Notes under the pieces: generated by a model
Database searches by the model: none
The model's input: the letters and a program-made list of their open reading frames with translations, nothing else
Told to the model about the DNA's origin: nothing
Part shown: positions 4,021 through 62,459 of the stretch, one piece after another
How the letters are laid out: every line of letters begins with the position of its first letter
Position numbering within the stretch: the first letter of the stretch is position 1
NCBI GenBank assembly: GCA_013112545.1
Contig: JABFGJ010000008.1
Coordinates: 95,394 to 159,393 of the forward strand
Direction of reading: 5' to 3'
From: Bacteroidota bacterium
Lineage (GTDB): Bacteria > Bacteroidota > Bacteroidia > Flavobacteriales_E > Vicingaceae
DNA length: 64,000 nt
Made by a program: the position numbers and the translations under genes

Positions 4021-4117
4021 CAGAAATCTGTTTAAATACTTTATTGGCTTCTTAGTAGAATTACTACTTTTGACTTGAGTTTTTCACAAAGAATTATTCT
4101 AGTTTTTTCCCTTTAGA

Positions 4118-6693: not shown

Positions 6694-6694
6694 A

Positions 6695-10868: not shown

Positions 10869-11185
10869 ATTTTATATCCTCCCCTCTTTTTTCTCTTTTT
10901 TTCTTTTTCATATATTTCCATAGGAGTTAATTCAAATTCTTCCTTTTTTAGAAAGAATTCGAATTCATCTAATAATTCAAGAGTTCGAGAGATTGAGATT
11001 AGAGATGCTATCGAGAAATTTCTTCCTTTTTCAATTCCTGCAATTGAACTTCTGCTCATTCCAGTTTTTTGAGCTAATTCCGTTTGTGATAATCCAGCAT
11101 TTACACGTAATGAACTAAGTTTTTTGCCCCATTTTCGTATTAACTCTTTATCAGAATAAGCATAATAGTTACTTTCCATAATCAA
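10865..11185 (-). CDS. hipB: XRE-family helix-turn-helix transcriptional regulator (HipB-like antitoxin)
   Basis: 106 aa. HTH_XRE signature (LSQTELAQKTGMSRSSIAGIEKG). Translationally coupled to hipA. Confidence 0.7.
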   Translation of the reverse strand: MIMESNYYAYSDKELIRKWGKKLSSLRVNAGLSQTELAQKTGMSRSSIAGIEKGRNFSIASLISISRTLELLDEFEFFLKKEEFELTPMEIYEKEKKRKKRGGYKI

Positions 11186-11506
11186 ATGTACTACAAAAAG
11201 GTCAATAAAGCAAAAAAACGCACATAATGACCTTTTTGTGATACATTTTACATTGGATTAAAGGGAAGTAAATACCACATAATACTTGACAAATTAAATA
11301 CAAAAGCGCAATTTATAAATGATTACTTGTAATTTTTTAGTGTTGTCTTAGCATAATTTATGAATAGCACTAGTTTTTGTAGAGCTTACAAATTCATCAT
11401 ACCAACTCATAATTAACTAGTTAAACCATTACTATTACTTTAATCTCAAATTAACATTTGTTAATGCCTTGATTAAGCGGATAGCTTTGTAAGAAGCCTT
11501 ATTTTT

Positions 11507-14011: not shown

Positions 14012-14134
14012 ACCCAATGACATCAACGACAAACCTCCTTTCTTTAAGAAGTGGAGCGGCTTGTATCTGTTTATTTTAGGATTTGAGCTTTTCTTAATTC
14101 TACTTTTTATATGGATTACTAATACATTTAACGG

Positions 14135-15832
14135 ATGAATGCTTTAGGTTGGATTGATTGGTTAATCATGTTGGGAACCTTATTTACCATAGTGGTATAT
14201 GGTGTTTGGAAAACACGTGGTGCAAAAAATATTGAAGGCTACCTATTGGGTGGAAAAGAATCGAATTGGTGGACAATCGGTTTGTCGGTTATGGCAACTC
14301 AGGCTTCAGCCATAACTTTTTTGTCAACTCCAGGTCAGGCATACATGGAAGGAATGGGTTTTGTGCAATTCTATTTCGGTTTGCCTTTAGCCATGATTAT
14401 AATTTCAACGGTATTTATTCCACTCTATTATAGGTTAAAAGTCTATACAGCGTATGAGTTTTTAGAATCTCGATTCGACAATAAAACTCGTTTTTTAACC
14501 GCTTCTTTATTTTTATTGCAACGTGGATTAGCTGCTGGAATAACCATTTATGCACCTGCCATTATTCTTTCTCAAATCATTGGTTGGAGTCTAAATTTCA
14601 CCATCCTATTTATTGGTGCTTTAGTTATAATTTACACCGTTTCCGGAGGAACTAAAGCAGTCAGTCAAACGCATAAGCAACAAATGGGAATTATTTTCTT
14701 AGGTATGTTTATCGCCGCAGGTTTTTTGATTTCTTATCTCACCGACAACTTAAGTTTTTCGCAAGGAATTGAAGTTGCGGGAATTATGGATAAAATGGAA
14801 GTCATCGATTGGAAATTCGACCCCAGCAGCAAATACAATATTTGGTCGGGAATTATCGGTGGTTTGTTTTTGCAATTAAGTTATTTTGGAACTGATCAAA
14901 GTCAAGTTCAACGCTATTTAAGTGGAAGTTCTGTTAAGGAAAGCCGATTAGGTTTGATGTTTAACGGATTGCTTAAAATTCCGATGCAGTTTTTTATTCT
15001 GTTTGTAGGAATTTTGGTTTTCTTGTTTTATCAATTTGTGATGCCTCCACTCCATTTTAACCAAGCGAATGTAGATCAAGTGATGCAAAGTGAATACGCA
15101 GAACAATATGAAGAATTACAAGTCAAACAAAAAATGGTTTTTGATGCTAAGCACGATTTAATTCTTCAATACAAAGACACAGAGCAACCAGAAGAAGTTG
15201 CTAAAATGATTCAAGGGTTTCACGCTGAGGAGCGACTTTTAATGCAAGATGGTAAAGACTTAATCAAGAAAGCAAACCCTAAGGCAGAAACCGAAGACGA
15301 TGATTATATCTTCATCACTTTTGTTATCAATTATTTGCCCATTGGGATAGTAGGTTTGCTATTAGCAGTTATCTTCTCGGCAGCGATGTCTTCTACTTCT
15401 GCCGAATTGAATGCCTTAGCTTCTACCACTACTGTTGATATTTATAAACGAAATGTTAAAAAGAATGGCTCTGAAGTGCATTATTTGAAAAGCTCAAAAT
15501 TATTCACTCTATTATTTGGCCTTTTTGCCATTGGTTTTGCAGCTATGGCAAGTTTATTCGAAAACTTAATTGAAGCTGTAAATATCTTGGGTTCTTTGTT
15601 TTATGGAACTATTTTGGGGATATTTTTAGTTGCCTTTTTTATTAAATTCATTAAAGGTCAAGCGGTTTTTATTGCTGCAATAATTTCTCAAATCATCATC
15701 ATTGCCTTGTTTACCATGAACCGCTTGGAGATTATACAAATTGGATATTTGTGGTATAATTTAATTGCTCCGATGCTAGTTGTTGGTTTTGCGCTGATGA
15801 TTCAGGGAGTATTAATAAAGGAAACGAGTTGA
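14135..15832 (+). CDS. Sodium:solute symporter family transporter
   Basis: 565 aa with about 13 TM segments. SSF-like pattern including GGxxxxWW... and a conserved mid-region. Confidence 0.8.
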   Translation: MNALGWIDWLIMLGTLFTIVVYGVWKTRGAKNIEGYLLGGKESNWWTIGLSVMATQASAITFLSTPGQAYMEGMGFVQFYFGLPLAMIIISTVFIPLYYRLKVYTAYEFLESRFDNKTRFLTASLFLLQRGLAAGITIYAPAIILSQIIGWSLNFTILFIGALVIIYTVSGGTKAVSQTHKQQMGIIFLGMFIAAGFLISYLTDNLSFSQGIEVAGIMDKMEVIDWKFDPSSKYNIWSGIIGGLFLQLSYFGTDQSQVQRYLSGSSVKESRLGLMFNGLLKIPMQFFILFVGILVFLFYQFVMPPLHFNQANVDQVMQSEYAEQYEELQVKQKMVFDAKHDLILQYKDTEQPEEVAKMIQGFHAEERLLMQDGKDLIKKANPKAETEDDDYIFITFVINYLPIGIVGLLLAVIFSAAMSSTSAELNALASTTTVDIYKRNVKKNGSEVHYLKSSKLFTLLFGLFAIGFAAMASLFENLIEAVNILGSLFYGTILGIFLVAFFIKFIKGQAVFIAAIISQIIIIALFTMNRLEIIQIGYLWYNLIAPMLVVGFALMIQGVLIKETS

Positions 15833-46675: not shown

Positions 46676-47365
46676 TCATTTGCCTTTCTTCTGTTTTTTC
46701 TCTTTTACTTCTTTGTCGTAACCGATTTGCCAAAAATACATATCCAGTATTTTCATTAGCGGATAATGTCTTTGGGTTTCAGTTTTTATAAGTTTTTGTG
46801 CTTCGTCAATTTCATTTTTGTTATCGTCAATGAAATTGAAAAGTTCGTTTAATGATGCCTCATTAAAACCTGTATGTTTCATTTTCATTTCTTTTAAGCC
46901 GTCTATGAAATACCTGTCGTAAGCAGGAACACAGCCCAATGTGCCAAGTATAATTTTGCTCAATAAAGTGTCTGTTGGTGAAATGGGCTTTGGCTTGTCT
47001 GCTCCTTTGGTGAAATAAATACTCCTGTAATATTTTGCCAATTCATCTTTCACTGCAATAATGTCTTTAATTTTTTCTCGTTTTATTTCGGTGGTTTGGT
47101 TGCATTTGAGTTTTTGACTGGTATTTGAAAATATGATGTCAACTGCTCCTTTGTGAATTAAATGATTCTTTTGAAGCAACCCGCCTGAACCTCTATACAT
47201 TCCCCAACTTGCCAAATAGAAAGCTAACTCCAAAATCTGAATTTCTGATTTTGTTGAAGAACTAAAGGAATGAAAGCAATTGTCCCAAGATTTATATCTG
47301 TGGAATTCATCTGCCGTAATGCCTGATAGGTACTTCTTAATTATTTCAACAATACTTGCTTTCAT
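46676..47365 (-). CDS. Hypothetical protein, last gene of the pAgo operon (3-nt gap after pAgo)
   Basis: 229 aa with no recognisable motif. Co-directional and tightly packed with the pAgo gene. Confidence 0.5.
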   Translation of the reverse strand: MKASIVEIIKKYLSGITADEFHRYKSWDNCFHSFSSSTKSEIQILELAFYLASWGMYRGSGGLLQKNHLIHKGAVDIIFSNTSQKLKCNQTTEIKREKIKDIIAVKDELAKYYRSIYFTKGADKPKPISPTDTLLSKIILGTLGCVPAYDRYFIDGLKEMKMKHTGFNEASLNELFNFIDDNKNEIDEAQKLIKTETQRHYPLMKILDMYFWQIGYDKEVKEKKQKKGK

Positions 47366-47368: not shown

Positions 47369-48793
47369 CTACATATAAAAAGCATAGGATTCTTTTGGTT
47401 GTTCATTTTCTCCAAGGTATTTCATTATTTCCCCAACCCGTCTGGCACAGCCAATTGTGATTGGATATTTGTTGTCGAATTGGGTGTTGTTCCAGTTCAT
47501 TTTTGTTAGACCAAGGACTTCCTTGCAAACTGTCTTTACAGAAGAAACTGATTCTACGATTCGCACTTCTAAAGGAGCAGGAATATACATTCCGGGATAT
47601 GTCTGATATTGATGAACCGAGCCTCTTGTATAAAGGATGTGTCTGTTCTCTGTCAATGAAAAAACCGAGCCTCTTACTGGTGGATAAAGATTGTTTCTAA
47701 AAAAACGCAAGTCGGTTTCCATAACAGTTACAATGTCATATTCAGAAATGCCTAAATCTTGCATTGCTTGTATAAAGCCGTCTAACTCGTCTTCATAATA
47801 TTTTGAAGTTTTGTGTAGAACTACTCGACCTGGTAATGTCCCCGTAGCAAATTTGTATTTAGTTAAAGCATCTTTCAGAAGACTTAATGATTGGTCATAA
47901 GTCAAGTGGGGCTTTCTATCGTCCTTGTCTTCCGTTACAGGTGTTCCCCGAAGTATTACGCCTTTACCATTCTCATTGAAAATTTGAGCCAAACTGGTCT
48001 GAATTGTCTTTTTATCTCTGCTTCTATAAAACCCAATTCCGACAAAACAAACTTTTGGTTTGTTTTCATCAACATCCAATTTCCAAGGAATAGTTTGAAG
48101 TCCTTTGTAATAAAGTGCTGTGCAAAAGTTCCAAGCCTTTGTAGCTGCATCTTGTGATTTGTTATTGTCGTGCAAAACATACTCTCTCAATAACTGGATA
48201 GGTGTATTGTATCTCATTGCACGAGCTTTTAAAGCACGTCTAAAGTTCAATTCCAATTCAGGCTCTCCGTTATCTTCCGCATCTTGTTCTACGGGTTCAT
48301 CATCTTTATTTTCCTTTACAATTTTACCTTCAAAACTTTTTGGAATGATGCAAATGATAACATCACAATTTTTTATGTCTGATAGAAAGCCAATGTTCTC
48401 GCCAAATAATTCGACTGCATCCAATACTTTCTGATCCCTGTCAGGTTCTTTTAGAATTTTCTTAATGTCGTTTGGCGAAAGAATTCTTTCATAATTTGTA
48501 TCGTAAATTAATTTGGCACAAAATCCTTTATCTTGGTTAAAACCCGAAAATGGTTTGAACAAACCTTTTTGTTTTCCTTTGGGGTTAGCAGGTATATAAC
48601 TTTCAAATCGCTTTAACCAACCTTTTAAATTCTCAACATCTTCTTCTATTCCGATGATGCCGAGTAATAATTGATTTTTTCTTGCTTCTATGACTGTGTC
48701 ATAAACATTTAACTCTGCTATACCTTCTCTTGGACAAATACTTTTGCCTTTGCCAAATAATAAAAAAGGTTCTTGTATATAGTCCGCTTTCAT
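47369..48793 (-). CDS. Short prokaryotic Argonaute (MID-PIWI, predicted catalytically inactive)
   Basis: PIWI-like blocks: KVCFVGIGFY (position of the GIDV motif, Asp replaced), RVVLHKTSKYYEDELDGF (position of RDGVSE), DIVTVMETDLRFF, RGSVFS, and YPGMYIPAPLEV (position of the GTxxPxxY motif). MID-like region FRRALKARAMRYNTPIQLL. Start placed at the ATG 48793-48791, which forms ATGA with the stop of the upstream gene. The ORF track's alternative start at 48868 would give 499 aa. Confidence 0.7.
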   Translation of the reverse strand: MKADYIQEPFLLFGKGKSICPREGIAELNVYDTVIEARKNQLLLGIIGIEEDVENLKGWLKRFESYIPANPKGKQKGLFKPFSGFNQDKGFCAKLIYDTNYERILSPNDIKKILKEPDRDQKVLDAVELFGENIGFLSDIKNCDVIICIIPKSFEGKIVKENKDDEPVEQDAEDNGEPELELNFRRALKARAMRYNTPIQLLREYVLHDNNKSQDAATKAWNFCTALYYKGLQTIPWKLDVDENKPKVCFVGIGFYRSRDKKTIQTSLAQIFNENGKGVILRGTPVTEDKDDRKPHLTYDQSLSLLKDALTKYKFATGTLPGRVVLHKTSKYYEDELDGFIQAMQDLGISEYDIVTVMETDLRFFRNNLYPPVRGSVFSLTENRHILYTRGSVHQYQTYPGMYIPAPLEVRIVESVSSVKTVCKEVLGLTKMNWNNTQFDNKYPITIGCARRVGEIMKYLGENEQPKESYAFYM

Positions 48794-50181
48794 ATGCCAA
48801 ATAAATCTACGTCTCCATCCACGTCTTTTAGTTTTTTCTGTGCTCCAATTGCTTCTAAACTGTTCCAAACTGTGTCAGGAACAATAGGGGCAAAGTCGAA
48901 CTTTTCAATTTTATCCAACTTTATGAATGGATAATCTTTATTCTCATCAAATAATGACAATGTTTGAGAAGGTTGAAGGTAGTGTAGGATGAAATTAAAA
49001 TGATTAAATACGTGCATATTTCGTTCGGTCTTTTTCAACCACTGAATATTTTTAAATGCCAAGTGGCAAACACGGAAATCGCTCCAAAGAAAGATCCATT
49101 CAGGTTTTATAGAAATATACCAGTCATTATCAAAATTCTCAAAACCAGTTCTAAAGGCAAGACATCTCATATTAAACACTTCTTCCTTATTTTTCAAGTT
49201 TCTTTTGATTTCAACAACCTTTCGAGTTGCTCGTTTAGATGTTTTTGTCCATTCAATTGACCTTGGTTGCCATCTATCTAAATCATCTTTTTGAATGGGC
49301 AGGAAAGCGAACATTTTGGCTTCTCTTATCCACTTAATTTTCAGCTTATGTAACTTGGCTTCAAGACATTTCTTTAAAAGATACTTAAACTGAGATAAAT
49401 GGTCTGCTGATGTATCATAAAACTCATCACAAGCAAAAGGCTCTGCTGTTCCTCTGTCAATTATTTTGGTTAAGCCTACCGAATCATCTTGCAGGTTGTG
49501 AAAGGTGATGATTTTCCCATCCCAAATTAACCAGTCGTGAGGGAAAGAAATGTCCTGCATATACAAAGCAGAAACTGCATAATCGTGTAAGGTTGGTTTC
49601 TTTATATATCGCTTTCTTTCTTTATTGTATTGCTTAACTACCTTCTTATCAATATCCAAATCGGCAATGTATAAGTGACTGGGAAATTGAATTTTTACAA
49701 GGTTGGAATAAACAGGCTCTGTTCTATTGAAATATTCATTTTGCTTTTTGTCAATTTCAGTTTTTAATGCTTTTTCTAGTTCTTTTTCCAATTCAAAAGC
49801 ATCATTTACCGTTTTTCGAAAATAGTTTGGCTCAACCCGTCCTTCAAATTCCTTTTGTAGTGGGTCTTTAGGATAAGTGGTATTGATTACCAATACTGGA
49901 ATATTTTGGCTTCTTGCCGTTTGATATTCAAGTTCAGTAATGGATTCTTTGCCTTCGGGTTGCCAACCATACCGACTGCCTATTATCAAAACATAAATAT
50001 CCGATTCCATTACTTTGCTCAGGCAAGCAGTTAGCGAATCGGTGCTTTGTGCTTCCATTGTCTTTTCAGACATCACAGGAAAACCACCAACCTTATTCAC
50101 GGCATTGTATGCAGCGGTTCTCTCATTTGGCAAATCCCAAATGGTGCTACTAATGAATATTTTAGGTTGGGTGATGAACAT
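48790..50181 (-). CDS. DUF4062-type (TIR-like) N-terminal domain fused to an APAZ-like region; partner of the short pAgo
   Basis: 463 aa. N-terminus KIFISSTIWDLPNERTAAYNAVNKVGGFPVMSEK...SDIYVLIIGSRYGWQPEGKESITELEYQTARSQNIPVLVI follows the DUF4062 pattern (FxSST.DL..ER ... RYG ... SxTElEy). The size and position upstream of the pAgo match TIR-APAZ genes of SPARTA systems. Confidence 0.6.
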   Translation of the reverse strand: MFITQPKIFISSTIWDLPNERTAAYNAVNKVGGFPVMSEKTMEAQSTDSLTACLSKVMESDIYVLIIGSRYGWQPEGKESITELEYQTARSQNIPVLVINTTYPKDPLQKEFEGRVEPNYFRKTVNDAFELEKELEKALKTEIDKKQNEYFNRTEPVYSNLVKIQFPSHLYIADLDIDKKVVKQYNKERKRYIKKPTLHDYAVSALYMQDISFPHDWLIWDGKIITFHNLQDDSVGLTKIIDRGTAEPFACDEFYDTSADHLSQFKYLLKKCLEAKLHKLKIKWIREAKMFAFLPIQKDDLDRWQPRSIEWTKTSKRATRKVVEIKRNLKNKEEVFNMRCLAFRTGFENFDNDWYISIKPEWIFLWSDFRVCHLAFKNIQWLKKTERNMHVFNHFNFILHYLQPSQTLSLFDENKDYPFIKLDKIEKFDFAPIVPDTVWNSLEAIGAQKKLKDVDGDVDLFGI

Positions 50182-50185: not shown

Positions 50186-52159
50186 CTAAATTGTTATTCC
50201 TATTTTCTCAATCAAATCTTTTAAAGTCCAAACGCTGTCAATGATTTTGGTATTTGAATCAAACATCTCGCTATCAATATTTAGCGGAACAGCAACATTC
50301 GCTATATGTCTTGCCTTTATTTGTTCTAACCGTTGTTCAATTTGTTTGGCTGGAATCTTTGCTACGTTGTCTTGAAAATCCCAAAATTCTGTTCCATTGT
50401 ATTGCCATTTCTCTATTCTACATTTTGGATATTTAGGTGTCTTTACACCAGCCAAGTCATCTACATAAAAGTCAGACAGCAACTCAAAATCGAAAGAGTA
50501 ATTTTCGGTTGGATGCTTGAATTGCAATTTCATTCCTTTAGTCAAGAGTAATGTGTATTGCGGAATCGGATAATTGGTTTTGAGGTCTGTAATTAAATCA
50601 AAAGCTTTTTCTAACTCTACCTTGTAAATCGGCATTGAAATATGTTGAAAATGTGCTTGTGGATTTAATACCATAAGTTTGGTTTCATCAAAACTTTTTT
50701 TGATGTCCTCTGAAACTGGTTTTCCCAATGCTAAATACCGATTTATCATATTGCCCCAAAGTGTTTGCAATGAAAGGAAAGTGCCGTCAGATTTATATTT
50801 TAGTTCAGCGGGAAGTCTTTCATTCACAATTTTTTCAAGCTCTTTTCTGATATAGATAGATGAAGCTGTATAATCTTTTGCATCAAAATATTTTTTGGCT
50901 TTGTCAATAAACTCCAAATCACTTTCAATTAGGATAGGATATTCCTTTTTGCTTGCAACATCTTTTCCAGCATACATTTCTTTGAAAACCCATTTAGCAG
51001 GGTCGTGAAGTTTTTTGATTTTGAAGGAAACAAAGTCAAACAAGTTTTTATCGTGGGTTAAAAAAAGTAATTGATAATCTTTGGTGAAATTATTTTCCTC
51101 ATCTAACAAAAAGTCAATCAACTTGTCTCTGTTATTCATATCCAAGCTAATCATCACATCATCAAACACGATGAATTTCAAAACATCAGGAGCTTCTTCA
51201 TTTACTCGTTTCTTTAAAATAGTTAACCGAATGGCTATTGCAATTGCGGTTATTTTCGCCTCATTTAAGAATGATTGCGGACGATGTATGTCTATTTTCT
51301 TTCCTAAATAGGAAGTGATTTTCAAATCTATTTTAAAAGGCTCAAATGAATATGTTGTATCTTTTTTTCTATGTGAATGCCTATGATATTTTAATTCAAA
51401 GTCAATGTCATACCCCAATTTTTTAAGCATATCGGGAGCATTGGCATTGATGAAATCAATCAGGTTTTGAAACTCGTCATTAAAATGCTTGGCAAATTTT
51501 TCAAATTGTTTGTTCTCGTTGCTGTATTTGTAAACTTGAATAGTTTTTCCTTTCGAATTTGTTGTAGTTCCTGGGCCATTTTGAATTTCCTGCCACATTT
51601 CAAAAGCACTTGTTCTTGGCTGTAATGTTCCATCACGCCAAAGGCTATATTCTGCAAACCGAACATAAGGCAAAACATAACCCTCAAAAATCTTGGCTAA
51701 ATCAATAGGTTGTCCGTTCCAAAAGTCTTGAAACTTATACAACACCTTGTAGTTGATAAAGTCTGAAGCTTGGTTTACTTCAACAGCATCTACTTTAGCA
51801 CTTATATCGGTATTTAAAAGTGATACTTCATATTCTATAGCAGGATTATCTGTTGTTTTTACTTTGATAAATGAATTGAAATGTTCTTTTTTAGTAGCTA
51901 GATCTGATTGCTTAGATGCATATATGTTTATCAAGGATTGTTGTCGAGGGTCATTTGTGTCTACAAAGTATTTTTCAATGTCCTTTTCCTCTTTGAGCGA
52001 ACATTCAAACAATGTATATAAAGCCCAATACACAGAGCTTTTACCGCTTCCGTTTTCTCCGTATAACAGCAAATGTTTTCCTGTTTCTCCTAATTCTATC
52101 GCAGGTTGCTCATCAAAAAATTTGAAGTTGTGTATGTGCATGGATTTTATTCTGCTCAT
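50186..52159 (-). CDS. ABC/SMC-like (OLD/AAA_15-21 type) ATPase with an unassigned ~250-aa C-terminal domain
   Basis: 657 aa. Walker A LLLYGENGSGKSSV, Walker B/D-loop FIVFDDVMISLD, H-loop LLFLTHD. 5-nt gap to the downstream gene and 4-nt overlap with the upstream gene. Confidence 0.75.
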   Translation of the reverse strand: MSRIKSMHIHNFKFFDEQPAIELGETGKHLLLYGENGSGKSSVYWALYTLFECSLKEEKDIEKYFVDTNDPRQQSLINIYASKQSDLATKKEHFNSFIKVKTTDNPAIEYEVSLLNTDISAKVDAVEVNQASDFINYKVLYKFQDFWNGQPIDLAKIFEGYVLPYVRFAEYSLWRDGTLQPRTSAFEMWQEIQNGPGTTTNSKGKTIQVYKYSNENKQFEKFAKHFNDEFQNLIDFINANAPDMLKKLGYDIDFELKYHRHSHRKKDTTYSFEPFKIDLKITSYLGKKIDIHRPQSFLNEAKITAIAIAIRLTILKKRVNEEAPDVLKFIVFDDVMISLDMNNRDKLIDFLLDEENNFTKDYQLLFLTHDKNLFDFVSFKIKKLHDPAKWVFKEMYAGKDVASKKEYPILIESDLEFIDKAKKYFDAKDYTASSIYIRKELEKIVNERLPAELKYKSDGTFLSLQTLWGNMINRYLALGKPVSEDIKKSFDETKLMVLNPQAHFQHISMPIYKVELEKAFDLITDLKTNYPIPQYTLLLTKGMKLQFKHPTENYSFDFELLSDFYVDDLAGVKTPKYPKCRIEKWQYNGTEFWDFQDNVAKIPAKQIEQRLEQIKARHIANVAVPLNIDSEMFDSNTKIIDSVWTLKDLIEKIGITI

Positions 52160-55100
52160 TGCTGTATGTTTTTATTTATTACTGCAATGATGTCTTTGCT
52201 TCTTGTTTCCACCAGCAACATTCTTTGCCGTACAGGATTTTCGGGCTTTTGATACCACAAATAGAAATTTTGAATAACTTCTTCTTGGTCTTTCGAGTTC
52301 TCTAAATCCGAAATTGGTTTTGGCGAAATGAATTGTAATACATCAATTCCCACTTCTTTCATATGTTCTTCAAAATACAATTCATACACCATCATATTTA
52401 ACACATCTTCAATGTGTGAAGCTACTCTAACATTTGGCGTATGAGAAATGACCTGCTCTTTTTCCTTATCATAAAGAAAAATCAAATAATCCACAAGAGT
52501 TTCAAATGAAGATTCTCCTTCAAATTTCATAATAGGAATTTGAGAAATTTGTGTTCCTCTTAGGTCAAAATAACCTCCTTGAACTTTAGTTGATGAAAAT
52601 TTATTTTCAAACCAGAAATGAATCAATTGAGAGTTTAAAATTGATAATGCATACTTTGAATTGATTTGATTGCCATATCTCTGTAGGTAATATATTCTAT
52701 CTAATATAATATCTTCTTGATTGTGATAAGCTGCTCTTATATTCAAAACAGTTCTTGGCAGTAGTAGTAGCTCATTTTTAAACAATTCAACTATGTTTGA
52801 ACCAAATGATTTATCTTTAAACTCAATGTAAGTGTTGGGTGTATCTATAAAATACTTTTGAACATTAACAGACTTTATTGCTCTTAAACCCTTATCTACA
52901 TACTCAATTTTATTATTGGGTATTCCCCTTTTACATTTAAAATAATCCCCAATATTAGTTTTGATTTCTTCAATTTTATCAATTATGTTTGATGTTCTTG
53001 AATCGGATTGAAATATAATTTCAAATTGCGAGTTGAAATTAAATAGTTTATGTAGTTCGAGTTTTTTATCAATATTCTCAAACTCATTTAGGTTCTTTAA
53101 TTGAACATAAGAGGTTTCGGAATTTGTATGGTTATTTCTAATTAAGAGCAAAATAGGATATGTAAGTGCATTTTCGAAAACTGAACATTTGGATAGGTCA
53201 ACTATTTGAAGAACATCAGCTTTAGTTAATACAATCTCTCTTATTTTCAATCCATATTCAGCAACAAAAAATTTATTTGGATTGATAAAGGATAAAATCC
53301 CGTCTTTTTTTAGATTATTTAACCCCATTTCAATGAATAAAATATACAAATCATACTGCTTATAAGCTGATTTATAATATTTCTCATATTGCTTTTTTAA
53401 ATTTGAATCTAACGAGGTTCTTCTAACGTAAGGTGGGTTTCCAATTATTATATCAAATCCTTCTTTAACACCAAACATCCACCAAGCATCAAACCAAGAG
53501 CAGGGTGCAGATTCAAAGTCGAAAGGGTTAAATCCGTAAAGTTTAGTGTAAAAGTCATAGTTGTCTTTGGTTGTCAATTCACGCAAACTCAATAAATCAG
53601 TTTGCACCTTTTTAAATCGTCTTTCAAGTTGTAGCTTTTCTTCGCTGCTTACATTAAAAAAATCGTGGCGTATTTTTTCTAATTCTTTTACTGCCAAACT
53701 TGCTTTGGCATCCATATCAAGCTCATTAATCTTCCCAAGTGGGATAAGTGTGTTAGCACAAATAATTTTAAAGTCAAGGTTTGGTAATGGTTGTGGTTCC
53801 GGTTCATCTACCACCAAACTCAACCAAAATCGCAAACGGGCAATGTCCACCGCACCGCTATCAATGTCCACTCCATAAATGCTTTCCTCAATTATGTGCT
53901 TTTTGATATCAGCATCCGAAACGCCTTTTTTAAACCCTTTAAGTTCTTGTAAATAAACCAGTGCATTAAAAATCTCTTGCAACAATCCCATAGGAAAAGC
54001 TCCTGAACCAATAGCTGGGTCGCAGACCTTTACTTGTTCTAATGCTCCAATGATTTTATAGGCATTCTTTTCAGCGAATTGCTTTTCATCATCATTCAAT
54101 TCTTGTTGCTGAATGATTTTATCTATGGCTTGTTTAGCCAGTTCGTTATTTCCAAAAAGATTTTCGTCTTGAGCAAAAAGATAAGCCTTCAAACTCTCTT
54201 TGCACATATAATGCACGATTTCTTTCGGGGTATAAAACGCTCCTTTGTCTTTGTTGTCTTCCAGTAAGTTTTCAAAGATGTGTCCGAGCATTTCAGGGTC
54301 AACGGCTACCGTATGTTCATCAGGTGCATCTTCGTAAATGGTAAAGTTGTAATTATTGAAGGTTTCAAAAAGGTTCTGAAAAATACGCTCAGGCATATAG
54401 AGCTTGTTGTATTTTCTGTCCTGACTGTCGTCAAACAAACCACCATTCAAGTAAGGAAACCTAAAATCATTGTTTGCTTTTTCATAATCAGGATTACATA
54501 ATGTTCTAAAGAACAATGGCACTAACTCCTGATGATAAAAATCCTCTTTGTGTTTTGATTTGGTAAAGAGATCATACAAATAATCAGGATTGCCTTCGCC
54601 CCATTTTTTACCTTTAGCCACTGCTAACCAACCTTTCTTTTGAATGAAATAGAGAAACACAATACGCCCCATCATTCGCTTGCAGAAATCACGGGCTTGT
54701 TTTTCGTCTTTGTTAAAAAGGGCTGTTAATTGCCAGTCGGGTTCGTGAATGACTTGTTCAACATATTTGTTTCCTTTCTTTCTGTATCGCTTACCCGTAA
54801 GGAATTGAACAAAATCTTCATAAGCTTCTTTATAGTTTTTGAAAAACTCCTTACTCAATTTCTCAACCGAGAAAGCTTCTTCAAAATCATCTAAAGTGAG
54901 AAACTGAAAAATATTTTCTTGCTGCTTTTGAATGAGTTTATCAAAGCGAATGGCTGCCGTTAATGCTTTTTCATTTTTACCAAATAGGTATGTGTAGCGT
55001 TTAGGTGCTGTTTCCTTATCTTGAATTTCGTTGGTAGCTGTGTTCTTTACTTTTCGCTTACTGATGTAGCTAAAACGCCATTTATCACCCTGCACAAATA

Positions 55101-55401
55101 CCACCATTGCCCCTGCAACTTGTTTGGTCAAGTCTTTTAATAAGTTTCTAAGTGCAACACGATTTCGGGTAATGTTAACTTTCTCATTCAGTTCTACTTC
55201 AAAAATTCCGATTTTGGTGTATTCGTTTATTTCATAATTACCCAAACTCAAACATTGTTTGCTCAATGTTTTGTCAGACAATGAAATTACACGGTCTTCT
55301 GCATTCAGTTTGTTATTGGTAAACTGAGTTTGCAAAAAGCCTTTCCACACTTTTCTATCGTATGGACTTTCGAGAATATGTCTTATTTCTGATACTGTCA
55401 T
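52156..55401 (-). CDS. Eco57I-like N6-adenine DNA methyltransferase, large (1081 aa) with N- and C-terminal extensions (type IIG/PglX-like architecture)
   Basis: AFYTPKEIVHYM (motif X-like), DPAIGSGAFP (motif I), IIIGNPPYV (motif IV, NPPY), and a long C-terminal putative target-recognition region. Confidence 0.8.
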   Translation of the reverse strand: MTVSEIRHILESPYDRKVWKGFLQTQFTNNKLNAEDRVISLSDKTLSKQCLSLGNYEINEYTKIGIFEVELNEKVNITRNRVALRNLLKDLTKQVAGAMVVFVQGDKWRFSYISKRKVKNTATNEIQDKETAPKRYTYLFGKNEKALTAAIRFDKLIQKQQENIFQFLTLDDFEEAFSVEKLSKEFFKNYKEAYEDFVQFLTGKRYRKKGNKYVEQVIHEPDWQLTALFNKDEKQARDFCKRMMGRIVFLYFIQKKGWLAVAKGKKWGEGNPDYLYDLFTKSKHKEDFYHQELVPLFFRTLCNPDYEKANNDFRFPYLNGGLFDDSQDRKYNKLYMPERIFQNLFETFNNYNFTIYEDAPDEHTVAVDPEMLGHIFENLLEDNKDKGAFYTPKEIVHYMCKESLKAYLFAQDENLFGNNELAKQAIDKIIQQQELNDDEKQFAEKNAYKIIGALEQVKVCDPAIGSGAFPMGLLQEIFNALVYLQELKGFKKGVSDADIKKHIIEESIYGVDIDSGAVDIARLRFWLSLVVDEPEPQPLPNLDFKIICANTLIPLGKINELDMDAKASLAVKELEKIRHDFFNVSSEEKLQLERRFKKVQTDLLSLRELTTKDNYDFYTKLYGFNPFDFESAPCSWFDAWWMFGVKEGFDIIIGNPPYVRRTSLDSNLKKQYEKYYKSAYKQYDLYILFIEMGLNNLKKDGILSFINPNKFFVAEYGLKIREIVLTKADVLQIVDLSKCSVFENALTYPILLLIRNNHTNSETSYVQLKNLNEFENIDKKLELHKLFNFNSQFEIIFQSDSRTSNIIDKIEEIKTNIGDYFKCKRGIPNNKIEYVDKGLRAIKSVNVQKYFIDTPNTYIEFKDKSFGSNIVELFKNELLLLPRTVLNIRAAYHNQEDIILDRIYYLQRYGNQINSKYALSILNSQLIHFWFENKFSSTKVQGGYFDLRGTQISQIPIMKFEGESSFETLVDYLIFLYDKEKEQVISHTPNVRVASHIEDVLNMMVYELYFEEHMKEVGIDVLQFISPKPISDLENSKDQEEVIQNFYLWYQKPENPVRQRMLLVETRSKDIIAVINKNIQQ

Positions 55402-55413: not shown

Positions 55414-58400
55414 TTATGAAACAAATGTTTCGGATATGATAATTTTTGGTTGCAGAGGTTCTAAGTCCTTTTTTGCTTCTCGTTTAATTTTGGAAGTGTA
55501 TTTCCTAGATAGTTTTATCAATTCCGTTTCCAATTTCATTGGATTTGTTTCGTTTCTTAATTTGTAAACTTCATTGGTTAGGTTGGTGTAAGTTCCATTT
55601 TTTAGCAAAGGCAATAAATTTGTTCCTGCTTCAATGCTTTCAGGTGATGAAAGAATTTGATTGGCTAACCAATTATTCAAATCATTTAATGCTTTGTTTG
55701 ACCTTACGTCCAATTTATCTTCATTGCCTCCAATCATTTCGGGAGTGGTGATGTCTCTTTCAAATTGTTCCAAAATATGATTGATGTGTTTGTAATGCTC
55801 ATCAGGAACAGGCAAAATGCCTTCTTCTGATTTTGGTGCTTCGAAAATCTTAACTGCTTTTTCAAATGGAACAGAAAATGATTTGCCTTCTGTATGAATA
55901 TAGATATTCTTATGGTCTCCATTTTTCACAAATGCTATACTGCTTTCATTTTCGGATGCTTTACGGATGCACCTAACTTTTAAAGGCATTTTTCGGATAG
56001 CGTTAAAATGAGCTTCGTTTTGCTCTCTGTATTTTCGCAACCATTCTAAATATTCTGTTCTCAGGTCTTTATCTTCTTCCTTTTCCTCAAACATTCTGAA
56101 TTGGTCTATAATCTCGTCCAGTGTGTAAATCTTGTTGTCCTCACCAAAAGTGCTGTGGCTACTTTGCAGTTTTACCAATGATTTTTGTCGAAGGTTAATT
56201 CTATCATCTCCGTGTTCAGAAGGGTAGAAGTTGTAATTGTAAATGAATTGAGCTTTTGTTCCAATTCGGTTGATTCGTCCAAGTCTTTGAATAAGTCTTG
56301 TCGGATTCCAAGGTGTATCATAGTTTACAATTACATTGGATCTGTGCAAGTTGATTCCCTCTGCCAATACATCTGTTGTTAAAATGATGTCGTAATCATT
56401 TCTAAAAGTTCCTTCAAAATTGGCATCAAAGTTTTCACGAATGGTTTCAAATTCTTTATTTCTGTTGTCAGATGTAATGCTTAAAACCTTGTAATTTGTT
56501 TCGTTTTTCAGTCTGGCAGTCAGGTATTTTAAAGTGTCTGCTGATTCAGTAAAGATTACAAGTTTGCCTAACTCGTTTTTGTCTTTATTGAAATATTCAT
56601 TTTCCAGTAGCTGAATAAATACATTCCATTTTGGGTCGTTGTGTTCTTCAATAGCTTGCCATCTTTCATTTAAGGCAAACAGGTTTTCATAGTCTCTGCG
56701 TAATCCCTCAATAAAGCCAGCTTTGAAATCGGATTGTTTGAACTTCTTGTTTTTGGGTTTGTCATCATCAATTTTCAGAATTTCAATTTCAATTTCTTCA
56801 TCTGTGTAGCCTTTGTTCAACAAATCTGAAATGTCTAAATCAGGAGCTATGAAAACACTGTCTCTTTCATACATTTCAATCATTTGCTTTGTGGAAGCAG
56901 TGATTTTGCTCAACGAGTTTTTGAAAGCATAGAAACTACTTTCCAAACGCTTGATTAGCTGCGTTTGCATAATGAAGGCCAATGAACGGGAAATTGTCTG
57001 TGCACTTTGGTAAAGGCCGTTGTTCGCTTCGTCTGTCAAATATGCTATTGCTTGATAGCGGAAAAAGTCAATTTTATTTTTGTCAATAATGCTGTTTGCA
57101 GTATCAAGAAATAAAGTCGCTAAATCGTGGGGCAATTCATATTCATTTGCAAAAGGGTCTGCAACTTGAGGAAAAATAATTCCTTGCTCTTGCAAGTCTT
57201 TTGCATAGCGTTCATTTTTCTTTAAGTCGGTTCGGGTTCTACGAATGGTAATATCCTTTACCACTTTATCTCTGATGTCGTTGAAAATATCTTGTATGGC
57301 TTGTAAGTCAAGCGGAGTTTGTTGAATAAGTGTTTTATATCTGATGATGTGAGGATAGAAAAACTTTTGCAAATTGGTTTCAGCCAAATTACTGTTTCTA
57401 ATATCTTGGAATAAAGAAATCAAATAGTAAATATCTTCGGGCTTGTTATTTAATGGTGTTGCAGAAATCAATACTACCTTTTTTTCAAATCCTTCAATAC
57501 CACCAATATTTTCACGCCCCGATTTGCAAATCACTTGAAGGTTTTCAAACTGCTGACTTTTATGGTTTCTAAATTTGTGAGCTTCATCAACTAGAATTAA
57601 ATCGTAGCGTTCTTTATCTGCATAATTGTGGTCGCCCTCAACAATTTTGTTCAAACTTCCATTGGCAATAAAATGGCATTTTTCATCAATTCTGAACTCT
57701 TTAAAAGTGCTTTTCCAGTTTTTTTCAAGTGTTGGCGGGTAAACAACAAGAATTTTTGATTTAGGACCATTATTGATAATGAACTTCTTTGCGAGTAAAG
57801 CAGCCATAACCGTTTTACCCGTTCCAACTACGTCAGCTAAAAAGAAGCCGTTGTGTTTTAAAAGCAATTCGTAACCCTGATTTACTGCGTCAATTTGATA
57901 GCTGAGTTTTTTAAACTTCTTTAGCGGAATATCGCTAATACTGTCAGGGTCGTATTCAATATTCTTTCCGAAAAATTCGATTAAGAATTTTACATACAGT
58001 TCAAAAGGTGTTGGATTTAATTCTAAATAAGTCTTCTTTATCAATGCAGGTGCATCAACTGGAAGTATTGGTGTGCTTTGTTCCCAAAGCTTTTCAAATT
58101 CGGTGTCAGCAAAATTTACATTTTCGTAATCTCTTAACTCAACATTCATTTCGTAATTAAACTCTACTGCTTCAAGTCCAAGTCCTTGAGCAGAAAGATT
58201 AGACGAACCCATTATCACCATTCCATTTGGATTGTGTTCGTTGAAATTGGGTGAAAGAAAAATGTAAAATTTAGCATGAAGTTTTTTTGAATTGTGTGCT
58301 CTTATTTCTATTCGTCCTTCGGCAATATCAGCAATTAATTGAATGATTCCTGCTTCTATGTCCTTTCCATATTTTGCATTGATAATGTCTTGTTGAATTG

Positions 58401-58674
58401 ATTCAATGAATGATTCTTTGGTGTCTTTAGCGTTAAGATTGAATAAAAGTCCTTGTTTTTGAGCTAAAGCAATGAAAGGGTCAACATTGATTCCAGCAAT
58501 GATTTTTACCTTTAAGTTGTCAGGGAAATGTTTGCGAATAGCGAAATAACCCGATGCTCTGAAATAGCCAATAACTGATTTAAAGTATTCTATATTTTTC
58601 ATATGCTCAAACACACCTACAAATTTCTTGTAGAGTGTATTCTCGCCTTGATTTGTAAAAAAGTTTGATGCCAT
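55414..58674 (-). CDS. PLD-family nuclease domain fused to an SF2 (SNF2/DEAH-like) helicase
   Basis: 1086 aa. N-terminal HxK...GSSN motifs (LHAKFYIF...MGSSNLS). Helicase motif I ADVVGTGKT, motif II ILVDEAHKF, motif III LISATPLNN, and motif V/VI TDVLAEGINLHRSNVIVNYDTPWNPTRLIQRLGRINRIG. Confidence 0.8.
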   Translation of the reverse strand: MASNFFTNQGENTLYKKFVGVFEHMKNIEYFKSVIGYFRASGYFAIRKHFPDNLKVKIIAGINVDPFIALAQKQGLLFNLNAKDTKESFIESIQQDIINAKYGKDIEAGIIQLIADIAEGRIEIRAHNSKKLHAKFYIFLSPNFNEHNPNGMVIMGSSNLSAQGLGLEAVEFNYEMNVELRDYENVNFADTEFEKLWEQSTPILPVDAPALIKKTYLELNPTPFELYVKFLIEFFGKNIEYDPDSISDIPLKKFKKLSYQIDAVNQGYELLLKHNGFFLADVVGTGKTVMAALLAKKFIINNGPKSKILVVYPPTLEKNWKSTFKEFRIDEKCHFIANGSLNKIVEGDHNYADKERYDLILVDEAHKFRNHKSQQFENLQVICKSGRENIGGIEGFEKKVVLISATPLNNKPEDIYYLISLFQDIRNSNLAETNLQKFFYPHIIRYKTLIQQTPLDLQAIQDIFNDIRDKVVKDITIRRTRTDLKKNERYAKDLQEQGIIFPQVADPFANEYELPHDLATLFLDTANSIIDKNKIDFFRYQAIAYLTDEANNGLYQSAQTISRSLAFIMQTQLIKRLESSFYAFKNSLSKITASTKQMIEMYERDSVFIAPDLDISDLLNKGYTDEEIEIEILKIDDDKPKNKKFKQSDFKAGFIEGLRRDYENLFALNERWQAIEEHNDPKWNVFIQLLENEYFNKDKNELGKLVIFTESADTLKYLTARLKNETNYKVLSITSDNRNKEFETIRENFDANFEGTFRNDYDIILTTDVLAEGINLHRSNVIVNYDTPWNPTRLIQRLGRINRIGTKAQFIYNYNFYPSEHGDDRINLRQKSLVKLQSSHSTFGEDNKIYTLDEIIDQFRMFEEKEEDKDLRTEYLEWLRKYREQNEAHFNAIRKMPLKVRCIRKASENESSIAFVKNGDHKNIYIHTEGKSFSVPFEKAVKIFEAPKSEEGILPVPDEHYKHINHILEQFERDITTPEMIGGNEDKLDVRSNKALNDLNNWLANQILSSPESIEAGTNLLPLLKNGTYTNLTNEVYKLRNETNPMKLETELIKLSRKYTSKIKREAKKDLEPLQPKIIISETFVS

Positions 58675-58968
58675 TTATTTACCCTTTTTAATTTTCTTGG
58701 TTACCGACTTTAATGCCTCATCTGCAAATTGTTCATCTTTGATTACATCCATTACTTGGTCAGCTAACCAGAGTGTAAGAAGTTCTTGTTTGTCAGCATT
58801 TAATATTTCAGCCAAAGTTGCAACCTGCTCTTTTTTGATTGGTCTTTCACCTCTTTCCATTTTACTGATGATAGAAGTGTCAACGTCAAGTTTAGAAGCA
58901 ACCTGTCTTAACAGCAAGTTTTGCTTTGTCCTTAGCTCTCTTATTTTGTCTCCGAGTTGTGTCGCCAT
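58675..58968 (-). CDS. XRE-family HTH regulator (controller-protein-like) at the head of the defence operon
   Basis: 97 aa. HTH (LRTKQNLLLRQVASKLDVDTSIISKMERGE). Its start codon abuts a palindromic operator. Confidence 0.7.
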   Translation of the reverse strand: MATQLGDKIRELRTKQNLLLRQVASKLDVDTSIISKMERGERPIKKEQVATLAEILNADKQELLTLWLADQVMDVIKDEQFADEALKSVTKKIKKGK

Positions 58969-59576: not shown

Positions 59577-61184
59577 TTATTTATTATTTTTTTCAAAAAT
59601 GGACTGAAAACGCTCTTCAATTGATGAAAGTTCTTCATCAGTTATTTCATCAAACTCCCTCTGTCTTTTATTCTTTGATAAGCTACCGTTATTCTGATTA
59701 AGCAACTTGATTAACAAATCCACTTTGGTGTCAGGTAAAGACAAATAATTGTTTATGTATTTAGTCATTCGGACATATTTTTCTAAATAATCCAGTTCTT
59801 CTGGAATTATTTTCTCGATGGTCTCTTCTACGCATTCGTATAAAAATTCTACCTGTTTGGTTAGGTCGAAATAACGATATAGATCAATTGTTTCATTAAG
59901 AATTTTAACATTGTGATCTGCTGTTGGTTCCCATTCTACTAATTCTATTCTTTGAGATGAGTATGACTCTAGAATTGACTGGTATTCGTCAATCCGATTT
60001 AATATGGCTGCTGATACTGGAAAAATCATCCCCCTTTTAGTGTACCCCATACGAGTCAATATATGATGAATTATGTATCTGTGTAAACGACCATTACCAT
60101 CAGAAAATGGGTGAATAAATACAAATCCAAATGCTATTGTTGCCGCTGCTAAAACCGGGTCGTAACTTGATTCTTGCAGCAATTTATTTGTATCTAATAA
60201 CCCTTTCATCAAAGTTGGTAAATCTTTAGACTTTGCTGATATATGGTCAGGTAGTGGGGAAAAAGTATCACGATCATGCTCACCGATAAAGCCTTCCTGT
60301 GTTCTTAATCCCATACTCTTCAGTTTTTTAGCTCCAATTACTACGTCTTGAAGCCTTTCTAATTCTTCTATTGTTAGCTGTTTTTTTCCTGATTGACCAA
60401 TTGCTTTGCCCCAATTTCTGGCTCTAAGATTTGGAGGGTATTCTCCTTCGATGGCAAAGGAGGCTTTTGAGTCTTTTAATAACAAAAACGCAGCAGTTCT
60501 TCTAATGAGATCTTTATCCCTACCTTCTAAGCCTCTTTCGATTGAACCAGATAAATCTTTAGCTATGAAGCTTTGGATTTTATCGGTCTTTTTTATCATG
60601 GGACAAAACCCTTTTGTACCTGGTAAATTATTTTTTATTCGGTGTCGGGTAGAATTAATTGAAGTACTCGTGAACTGTAGTTTGGGATTGACTATTTCGA
60701 CATACGTTCCTGTCTTTAGATCTGGTATATCAAGTACTTCATCCATAAGCCATTCATAGAGGAACCATACTCTCCTGCTATACTGGCTGGTGGGCTCTTT
60801 TTTTATCATGTGCAGAACGGGCTCATTTCCTGTATGCTCAAAAAACATTTTTAGAATGTATAGATCAATTCCTTCGTACTTTAATGCAAAAGCTAAGTGA
60901 CTGGTTAAATCATTATCAGGTTTGTGTCTGATTGTAAATACCTGCCAATGTTCAGTATTGTACCGTTGATGTTTTTCAGTAACAATAGCAAGTCTGTCAG
61001 GTAAAGGAACGTTTACCCCATTTTCTTCTATAATAGTTGCTAATAATGCGTACCCGACAAGAAACCCTGGTTCTGGTGTCGGTTTTCCATGAAATGCAGT
61101 TACTTGTTGTGAAAAATAGTTACTCATTATTCGTTTATATGAAATCTGAGTACAAATATAACATGAAAATCGATTATAATTCAT
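59577..61184 (-). CDS. Fic-family protein with an N-terminal extension (DUF4172-like)
   Basis: Fic motif HPFSDGNGRLHR. 535-aa ORF. The true start may be the internal Met (MSNYFSQQ...). Confidence 0.75.
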   Translation of the reverse strand: MNYNRFSCYICTQISYKRIMSNYFSQQVTAFHGKPTPEPGFLVGYALLATIIEENGVNVPLPDRLAIVTEKHQRYNTEHWQVFTIRHKPDNDLTSHLAFALKYEGIDLYILKMFFEHTGNEPVLHMIKKEPTSQYSRRVWFLYEWLMDEVLDIPDLKTGTYVEIVNPKLQFTSTSINSTRHRIKNNLPGTKGFCPMIKKTDKIQSFIAKDLSGSIERGLEGRDKDLIRRTAAFLLLKDSKASFAIEGEYPPNLRARNWGKAIGQSGKKQLTIEELERLQDVVIGAKKLKSMGLRTQEGFIGEHDRDTFSPLPDHISAKSKDLPTLMKGLLDTNKLLQESSYDPVLAAATIAFGFVFIHPFSDGNGRLHRYIIHHILTRMGYTKRGMIFPVSAAILNRIDEYQSILESYSSQRIELVEWEPTADHNVKILNETIDLYRYFDLTKQVEFLYECVEETIEKIIPEELDYLEKYVRMTKYINNYLSLPDTKVDLLIKLLNQNNGSLSKNKRQREFDEITDEELSSIEERFQSIFEKNNK

Positions 61185-61373: not shown

Positions 61374-62459
61374 TTATTCTTTTTCTAATATTGCCATTAG
61401 TCTATGATTAAGGTATAGTTTTTCTTTTCCCAATTTCACAGATTTTAGAAAACCTTTCTCTTCTAATGAAATCAAATAGTTGCCTACGGTTTTTGCTGTT
61501 CCTAGTCCAGCATCAATCAAATGCTGTCTTTTTGTATAAGGAAGTTTGTATAATAGTTCTATTAAGTCTTTTGAGTATGCTTTTGGTAGTTCCTTTTGAA
61601 TTTCTTCTGAAACTGTTTTCATTGAATTTAAAATATCTTCTAATCTCGTTATTCCCCTTTTAGAAGTCCATTCAACCATATCCAAAATATACATTATCCA
61701 ACTTTCCCAATTCTCTGATTCTGTTACTTGTCTTAATCTTTTATAATATTCCAACTTGTTTTGAATAATATACTCACTCAAATAAATTGCGGGAATATCA
61801 AGTAGATTTTCAATTTTAAGATAAAGCAAGAGTAGGATTCGTCCTGTTCTTCCATTTCCATCAGAAAATGGATGTATGGCTTCAAATTGATAATGCAGTA
61901 ATGCCAATTTTATTAAAGGGTCTAGAGAGTTATCATCATTTATGAATTTTTCAAGGTTTTCTAATTTTTCTCGAATTACAGACTCTCCTGATGGAGGAGT
62001 ATAAATAACTTCTCCTTTAGTATTGGAAAGTGTTGTCCCCGGAGTTGTTCTAATGTTGGATGTATTTTGTTTAATGCGTTGCATTATTTCAACACAGAGA
62101 TTTGTAGTAATAAATGGTCTTGATTCTAATTGTTCTAATCCGTGCCAAAGAGCGTCTTTGTAACTTATGACTTCTTTTGCGTTTGGATTTTCAATTTTTT
62201 TGTCTGCAATTACAGATTTGTACAATTCATCATTAGTAGTTATAATATTTTCAATTTCAGAACTTGCTTTAGCTTCCTGTAAATGAATTGTATCTAAAAA
62301 GAGCCTAGGATTCGGAAGATTTGTTATTGCACCATTTAATTGCGCTAAGGCCCTACTGGCAGTAATAGTTTTACGTAATATTTCTGTAGTTTCCAAATTT
62401 GTATTTGGAGGTAGAATAGGTAAATTATTATAAGGCTCATTTCTTATAAAATCTCTCAT
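61374..62459 (-). CDS. Fic/DOC-family protein with a C-terminal winged-helix domain
   Basis: 361 aa. Fic motif HPFSDGNGRTGR and a C-terminal wHTH-like region. Confidence 0.85.
   Translation of the reverse strand: MRDFIRNEPYNNLPILPPNTNLETTEILRKTITASRALAQLNGAITNLPNPRLFLDTIHLQEAKASSEIENIITTNDELYKSVIADKKIENPNAKEVISYKDALWHGLEQLESRPFITTNLCVEIMQRIKQNTSNIRTTPGTTLSNTKGEVIYTPPSGESVIREKLENLEKFINDDNSLDPLIKLALLHYQFEAIHPFSDGNGRTGRILLLLYLKIENLLDIPAIYLSEYIIQNKLEYYKRLRQVTESENWESWIMYILDMVEWTSKRGITRLEDILNSMKTVSEEIQKELPKAYSKDLIELLYKLPYTKRQHLIDAGLGTAKTVGNYLISLEEKGFLKSVKLGKEKLYLNHRLMAILEKE

Follow-up and report, generated by a model that had tools for sequence, protein, structure and literature searches.

The window analysed here comprises 64,000 nucleotides of contig JABFGJ010000008.1 from a Bacteroidota bacterium (assembly GCA_013112545.1). 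On its minus strand, between positions 47369 and 50181, it carries two coupled genes that code for a short prokaryotic Argonaute (pAgo) and for a partner protein, in which an N-terminal DUF4062 domain (also called NIR) is joined to an APAZ domain. We consider it likely that the pair is a self-contained defence module in which RNA-guided sensing of DNA leads to the depletion of NAD+. The predicted chemistry is that of SPARTA, the system of a short pAgo with a TIR-APAZ effector. By their sequences, however, the pAgo and the APAZ domain belong to the nuclease-linked clade S2B, not to the SPARTA clade S2A.

The gene pair

The features of the pair are as follows.

48790..50181, minus strand: partner gene, DUF4062(NIR)-APAZ effector of 463 amino acids (open reading frame; PADLOC PDLC02415)
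47369..48793, minus strand: short prokaryotic Argonaute (MID and PIWI) of 474 amino acids, ATG at 48793 (PADLOC pAgo_I PDLC02376; alignments with SPARDA Agos)
48790..48793, minus strand: ATGA overlap of partner stop and pAgo start, translational coupling (sequence)
49801..50181, minus strand: DUF4062/NIR TIR-like domain (residues 1-127), predicted NADase
49927..49929, minus strand: GAA codon for E85, the predicted catalytic glutamate (KpSwz alignment, conservation)
50038..50073, minus strand: putative equivalent of the BB loop, from strand B to helix B (residues 37-48; model confidence, invariant residues)
49726..49800, minus strand: long linker helix from DUF4062 to APAZ (residues 128-152; a helix in both AlphaFold models)
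48832..49725, minus strand: APAZ domain (residues 153-450; phmmer, Foldseek, PADLOC PNTD1-PNTD2 models)
48793..48831, minus strand: acidic, disordered C-tail of the partner (residues 451-463, LKDVDGDVDLFGI; model confidence below 50)
48104..48247, minus strand: MID stretch with the contacts to the guide 5'-end (residues 183-230; N183, Q214, N222)
47372..48052, minus strand: PIWI domain with degenerate tetrad (G254, T329 and R451 at TtAgo D478, D546 and D660)

An initial annotation of the window had described two coupled minus-strand genes, and this description holds. In the motif ATATGA (48795..48790) the ATG of the pAgo (48793-48791) overlaps the TGA of the partner (48792-48790), which makes up the ATGA overlap of 4 bp that recurs in most related loci. 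A longer pAgo of 499 residues, read from a TTG at 48868, finds no support; the homologues and independent gene calls all have 474 residues.

The DUF4062 domain of the partner

The N-terminus of the partner matches the Pfam profile PF13271 (DUF4062) over its full length (residues 7-89 on profile positions 1-82 of 82) with an E-value of 3.3e-25 and 88.5 bits, the cut-off being 24.7. At E-values up to 0.1, PF13271 is the only family found in the partner; no TIR family appears, and the DUF4365 domain that characterises the nuclease of SPARDA is not detected either. The motifs FISST, ER, RYG and SITELEY are all present, and the domain has a TIR-like flavodoxin fold. The view that a DUF4062 domain stands here in place of a Pfam TIR domain is thus confirmed. 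Among solved structures, the sequence of the N-terminal domain matches solely DUF4062 proteins: KpSwz with an E-value of 6e-6 and, weakly, TEP1.

Two residues, E83 and E85, had been put forward as candidates for the catalytic glutamate. The structure entry of KpSwz is that of an E97A mutant, and the mutant alanine (SFTEKAF) lies opposite E85 of SITELEY; on this alignment the predicted catalytic glutamate is E85, not E83. E85 is kept without exception across 16 diverse DUF4062-APAZ proteins. It is also one of the three invariant columns (G72, E85, A89) of a 37-sequence alignment that includes DUF4062 proteins without APAZ. The other positions conserved throughout the family are likewise present (F9, S11, S12, R21, G68, G72, S80, T82, Q109).

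In the full-length AlphaFold model, residues 38-46 have a predicted local distance difference test score (pLDDT) below 50, yet M37, S38 and A44 are invariant. In inactive KpSwz the active site is blocked by the BB loop, and residues 37-48 of the partner may, by analogy, have the same role.

Hydrolysis or depletion of NAD+ by DUF4062 domains has been described for KpSwz, TEP1, PsAvs2, Vulcan, Vesta and Eva01 of Evangelion (bioRxiv 10.64898/2026.05.01.722283, 10.64898/2026.06.25.731849, 10.64898/2026.09.04.749371). These three preprints of 2026, which deal with other DUF4062 proteins, back the earlier suggestion of a divergent TIR-like NADase, and we infer that the partner is an NADase. A DUF4062 domain might instead act on another substrate, by hydrolysing (deoxy)nucleotides like MilB, Rcl and enzymes of the deoxyribosyltransferase type, or might make a signalling nucleotide. 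We regard this as quite improbable, since every DUF4062 domain tested, namely the six just listed, hydrolyses or depletes NAD+, and a signal would find no conserved third gene to receive it.

In PHROGs just two families of unknown function match the DUF4062 domain. When used by themselves as the query, the N-terminal 147 residues retrieved nothing but fragments from their own family; distant DUF4062 proteins were obtained through a search of all representatives.

The APAZ domain and the acidic tail

The C-terminal 300 residues or so of the partner are, by sequence and by fold, an APAZ domain. Phmmer aligns this part with the DREN-APAZ chains of SPARDA (9qbl_A, 9qbq_A, 9jsb_D) at E-values from 8e-10 to 2e-7; these matches in the PDB are confined to the APAZ part (query residues 202-451). 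With the full-length AlphaFold model (pLDDT 79) as query, Foldseek finds SPARDA (9qbp_A, E 2.3e-16), SPARHA (9om4_A, E 1e-12) and the TIR-APAZ protein of SPARTA (8i88_C, E 4.6e-12). The PADLOC model PDLC02415, which carries the label 'Aga_REase-PNTD1-PNTD2', covers the whole partner with an E-value of 4.7e-97. All three tools thus bear out the region of APAZ size that had been noted behind the N-terminal domain. NCBIfam has no matching model for the partner or the pAgo.

The acidic tail that follows contains three residues, D453, L460 and F461, that are invariant among close homologues. In the apo state of XauSPARDA an acidic C-tail fills the nucleic-acid groove, and the tail of the partner might occupy the groove in a similar way.

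Compared with the locus of Aquiflexum lacus (positions 8613-10004), the partner gene diverges as a mosaic: the DUF4062 part and the pAgo gene have 97-99% DNA identity, the APAZ part 67-90%. The partner differs by 47 amino acids, clustered at 181-197, 285-341, 358-374 and 400-423, and the whole pAgo by 6. The pattern suggests a recombination tract or a diversifying patch in APAZ.

The Argonaute

The second gene had been taken for a short pAgo, and the PADLOC match together with the alignments to SPARDA Agos confirms this. The protein consists of MID and PIWI only and lacks N and PAZ domains; its residues 2-473 align with SPARDA Agos of 482-485 amino acids. The PADLOC model pAgo_I (PDLC02376) matches positions 1-474 over model positions 1-455 of 455 with an E-value of 1.2e-176. 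End-to-end alignments are obtained with the SPARDA Agos 9jsb_A (E 6.8e-71), 9qbp_B and 9qbl_B. The Agos of SPARHA (9om4_B, E 3e-58) and SPARTA (E 1.6e-33) follow, and the weakest match listed is 8in8_C with 80 bits, deposited just as 'Piwi domain protein'. A Pfam-A scan of the pAgo finds neither a Piwi nor a MID family. The initial annotation had named precisely such a lack of profile matches as grounds for giving up the Argonaute assignment, and for Pfam-A the lack is formally there; the identity is settled by PADLOC (E 1.2e-176) and the solved pAgos (E 7e-71), and the Pfam-A miss reflects the divergence of short pAgos.

The catalytic tetrad of TtAgo comprises D478, E512, D546 and D660 (PMC5587774). 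We compared TtAgo, encoded on plasmid pTT27, with a profile of the pAgo family by means of hhalign (probability 69.6%, E 4.2e-5), which covered TtAgo residues 517-678. D546 lies opposite T329 and D660 opposite R451. D478 is outside the aligned stretch and corresponds to G254 by motif register alone (VGFDA versus VGIGF); these three positions are what the mapping covers. As far as this alignment goes, two or three tetrad positions are replaced, a DEDX tetrad is absent, and the PIWI domain is catalytically degenerate. The loss of catalytic aspartates proposed earlier holds at T329 and, by motif register, at G254. The register had been one residue off: RDG aligns with K328-T329-S330, not with HKT (residues 327-329; GIGF is 252-255). 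The motifs GI[GS]F and LKTS of the pAgo are shared by the SPARDA Agos, and these are catalytically inactive according to the SPARDA paper.

The 5'-AU of the guide RNA is read in XauAgo by N179, Q222 and N230. Their counterparts in the alignment with the pAgo, N183, Q214 and N222, are conserved in 34-35 of 35 pAgos of the family.

Distribution and clade

Homologues of the partner form 201 clusters at 90% identity. The best 120 of the 201 are 65-94% identical to it, nearly all of about 463 amino acids and equipped with PF13271, and stem mostly from Bacteroidota; clustering at 50% leaves about nine full-length DUF4062-APAZ representatives. The exact partner protein was found solely on metagenome contigs. 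In a scan of one genome per species, which yielded 456 relatives of the pAgo, the best match was Aquiflexum lacus, with 99% identity in the pAgo, 90% in the partner and 92-93% in the DNA. This species belongs to the Cyclobacteriaceae, not to the Flavobacteriaceae that the initial annotation mentions for SPARTA.

From the top 80 pAgo loci, 36 gave an identifiable DUF4062-APAZ gene, again mostly in Bacteroidota, with pAgo identities of 51-99%. In all 36 the partner lies directly upstream of the pAgo, and when all neighbouring open reading frames were clustered, just these two genes, in fixed order, were common to every locus. At 47-53% pAgo identity the partner changes: in 36 of 41 cases it is an APAZ protein with SMEK_N (PF21941), a type regarded as a nuclease (PMC10810196). 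In loci L038-L080 the SMEK-type partners end near position 10001. Two loci from Microcoleus (L040, L042) have a partner that matches EAD8, an effector-associated domain; here the same chassis bears a further variant, effector or adaptor.

The placement in S2B is derived from bit scores and from the nearest genomic relatives. The pAgo scores 242, 239 and 226 bits against SPARDA, 201 against SPARHA and 119 against SPARTA, and its nearest relatives go with SMEK_N-APAZ partners. The earlier label 'SPARTA-like' may therefore be kept for the predicted chemistry, not for the clade. In a neighbour-joining tree of unrooted quality, the DUF4062-linked pAgos stand on one side of the SMEK-linked ones, which is consistent with one effector exchange.

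Could the system still be an ordinary S2A SPARTA, its TIR domain mis-assigned to DUF4062 by Pfam? The structural comparison would allow it: the Foldseek alignment with SPARTA TIR-APAZ covers both domains of the partner, about 480 columns, and, according to the NIR preprint, a DUF4062 domain and the TIR domain of SPARTA superpose well. The sequences, in contrast, make it highly improbable. PF13271 was found without any TIR family, KpSwz and TEP1 are the sole solved matches to the N-terminal domain, the pAgo reaches 242 bits with SPARDA versus 119 with SPARTA, the APAZ domain has its closest relatives in SPARDA and SPARHA, and the nearest pAgos are paired with SMEK-APAZ.

A plasmid collection contained no full-length DUF4062-APAZ protein; the only matches were SMEK or DUF4365 proteins, aligned over their APAZ parts. 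On a metagenome contig of 36 kb (L083, positions 1880-4704 and 14044-15363) the cassette and a homologue of the gene that follows the pair in our window lie between a block of relaxase, NikA and primase genes and an AbiEii gene with a tyrosine integrase. This context hints that a mobilisable integrative element carries the cassette, and the protein identities of 80-95% across different classes of Bacteroidota would agree with such travel.

Proposed mechanism

Short pAgo systems of all clades sense DNA by means of an RNA guide and switch on an APAZ-fused effector by oligomerisation (PMC9097488, PMC12738770 and the SPARDA paper). In DUF4062/NIR defence proteins, the hydrolysis of NAD+ is activated by higher-order assembly. 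This common activation route of short pAgos and the NADase chemistry of DUF4062 domains are the basis of the mechanism proposed here.

The non-cutting MID-PIWI pAgo would form a heterodimer with the DUF4062-APAZ protein, as the homology of both to solved short-pAgo/APAZ complexes and their strict co-occurrence suggest. The complex would take up small 5'-phosphorylated RNA guides, probably with 5'-AU, because N183, Q214 and N222 are conserved, and would then scan invading plasmid or phage DNA. Pairing of guide and target would remodel the pAgo and cause oligomerisation, either to a tetramer of the SPARTA type or to a filament as in the closer relatives SPARDA and SPARHA. The oligomer would bring the DUF4062 domains together and free the active site around E85. 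The active domain would hydrolyse NAD(P)+ to ADP-ribose and nicotinamide, and the loss of NAD+ would halt the cell and abort the spread of the invader. That two genes suffice is supported by their co-occurrence in 36 of 36 loci. In evolutionary terms, an NADase effector may have taken the place of a nuclease effector within S2B, convergent with SPARTA (TIR) and SPARSA (SIR2).

Some points weigh against this mechanism of an autonomous, NAD+-depleting pair. DUF4062-APAZ systems are known from sequence alone, and the oligomeric state and the route of activation are extrapolated from SPARTA, SPARDA and KpSwz. The TtAgo alignment, on which the loss of the tetrad is read, spans just half of PIWI at a probability of 70%. 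Finally, 4 nt separate the pair from the ATPase gene upstream (see Genomic context), which leaves no room for an own promoter in the window; expression, and possibly function, could thus depend on the surrounding operon.

Comparison with known systems

With SPARTA (S2A; Koopal et al. 2022, PMC9097488) the pair shares the two-gene operon in which an effector-APAZ gene precedes that of an inactive MID-PIWI pAgo, the TIR-type fold and catalytic glutamate of the N-terminal effector, and the predicted depletion of NAD(P)+ upon RNA-guided recognition of DNA. It differs in the effector, which here is DUF4062/NIR (PF13271), and in a pAgo and an APAZ domain that are much closer to S2B. Having neither a canonical TIR domain nor the S2A lineage, the system should work like SPARTA without being a member of it.

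SPARDA (S2B, DREN/DUF4365-APAZ; PDB 9jsb, 9qbq, 9qcc) provides the best solved relatives of both pAgo and APAZ; the residues in contact with the 5'-AU of the guide and the acidic C-tail of the partner are also common to both systems. Its effector is a PD-(D/E)XK nuclease, in contrast to the TIR-like predicted NADase found here. SPARHA (S2B, HNH-APAZ; PDB 9om4, PMC12738770) belongs to the same clade, as the E-values for pAgo (3e-58) and APAZ (Foldseek, 1e-12) illustrate, and its filament-type activation is a plausible model for our pair, whereas its effector is an HNH nuclease. The systems of SMEK-APAZ and short pAgo comprise the nearest pAgo relatives (47-53%) and have the same gene order and ATGA overlap, but in place of DUF4062 they carry SMEK_N (PF21941), a predicted nuclease, at the N-terminus of the partner.

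The effector family, the catalytic glutamate and the motifs are shared with the DUF4062/NIR NADases, i.e., Swarozyc KpSwz, Evangelion Eva01, NIR-Avs2, Vulcan, Vesta and human TEP1. What differs is the sensor: a portal-binding region, an AUX region or a STAND/NLR module in those proteins, APAZ with a guide-loaded Argonaute here.

Relation to earlier classifications

Short pAgo systems are in development as programmable detectors of nucleic acids, and they are used as a model for the coupling of a single sensor to different suicide effectors.

Earlier classifications do not name a DUF4062 effector. Ryazansky 2018 put 100 APAZ proteins of group IIb under 'no extra domains', Koopal 2022 (PMC9097488) listed 'various domains', and the SPARHA paper (PMC12738770) listed 'additional uncharacterized effectors'. 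Within the literature searched, the papers that contain both 'DUF4062' and 'Argonaute' are all copies of two preprints. The pairing is named by one sentence of the NIR preprint, which mentions a DUF4062 domain with a short Argonaute; the other preprint has Argonaute papers in its reference list alone. DUF4062-APAZ had been presented as a variant that is not characterised. It still is uncharacterised, but it is no longer unnoticed, as that sentence and the PADLOC model labelled 'REase' demonstrate. An S2B short pAgo with a new effector is real and widespread, and it would hardly surprise a specialist of late 2026.

The pair represents a natural effector swap, in which a domain recently recognised as an NADase, which human TEP1 also has, sits on a pAgo/APAZ chassis that otherwise drives nucleases. 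Such a swap allows one to test whether assembly into filaments or tetramers is a general switch, and guide RNA plus target DNA would offer a defined trigger for DUF4062, which is helpful for enzymology. The family is widely distributed among environmental Bacteroidota, with over 200 clusters at 90% identity, and current tools mislabel its effector or leave it unlabelled.

Genomic context

The pair makes up genes 5 and 6 of seven co-directional genes with gaps of at most 12 nt. The other members are listed below.

58675-58968, minus strand: XRE-type helix-turn-helix protein (Pfam, PADLOC)
55414-58674, minus strand: PLD+SNF2 helicase, best PADLOC matches HmaA and DrmD
52156-55401, minus strand: Eco57I/PglX-like N6-adenine methyltransferase with a variable C-terminal specificity region
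50186-52159, minus strand: SMC-like ATPase, best matches mad3 and AbiLi
46676..47365, minus strand: ORF229, context gene of 229 amino acids that starts 3 nt past the pAgo stop

The pair might not be autonomous, but an add-on to this operon of helix-turn-helix protein, helicase, methyltransferase, ATPase and ORF229 that serves, e.g., in guide supply or in the discrimination of self and non-self. The tight spacing of the seven genes speaks for such a role, and so does the recurrence of its parts: the trio of helicase, methyltransferase and ATPase precedes the pair in 7 loci (with identities falling to 41%, 28% and 32%, respectively, in L031), relatives of the methyltransferase and the ATPase precede a SMEK-APAZ pair in L051, and several metagenome contigs have ORF229 behind the pair. 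We nevertheless hold it to be improbable. The trio is missing from 26 of the 36 loci and ORF229 from 35; in five genomes (L002, L004, L006, L016, L020; around 4000-14700) the pair is instead flanked by hsdS and hsdR, inside a type I restriction-modification (RM) operon; the trio occurs without the pair in L086 and L087, where it is followed by an ORF229 homologue; and the characterised short pAgo systems are two-gene units (Koopal 2022, PMC9097488). Because trio and ORF229 exist without the pair, and the pair also within hsdS/hsdR, its behaviour is that of a mobile cassette of two genes that settles within RM-like operons.

A joint reading remains unlikely, though it deserves some weight: an RNA-guided filament may scaffold the NADase, as in SPARDA and SPARHA, and the cassette may be wired into RM-like operons for its expression or for information on self and non-self. 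The former would mean that the activation machinery of S2B is effector-agnostic and that an NADase has been coupled to short pAgos a third time independently. The latter refers to the two settings in which it is repeatedly embedded, flanked by the SMC-like ATPase and ORF229 in the one and by hsdS and hsdR in the other.

ORF229 was also considered as a third component of the system and rejected, as it is present in 1 of the 36 genome loci and also follows operons without the pair. It has no match in Pfam, PADLOC, NCBIfam, PHROGs or the PDB. With 6055 homologues it appears to be a very frequent last gene in restriction-type operons of Bacteroidota; it ends varied RM-like operons (L083, L085-L089), be it after the pair, after the trio without the pair or after a type I hsdMSR.

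The upstream trio is not a canonical Hma system, which has an m5C methyltransferase in place of the Eco57I/PglX-like N6-adenine enzyme found here. The upstream operon resembles parts of Hma, DISARM and BREX and fits none of them. Its ATPase is just 25-32% identical between loci whose helicases are 84-97% identical.

A scan for sigma-70 promoters and terminators gave no excess over shuffled controls (64 versus 53 +/- 8); its consensus is unsuited to Bacteroidota, and the scan is silent on transcription units. No tRNA gene was detected in the window, and thus no island edge marked by tRNA. Just upstream of the operon lie two genes with Fic domains (59577-61184 and 61374-62459, both on the minus strand); the matches are PDC-S24, a candidate defence family (E 8e-190), for one and SoFic (E 3e-110) for the other. 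The whole stretch between 46.7 and 62.5 kb can therefore be read as a defence island.

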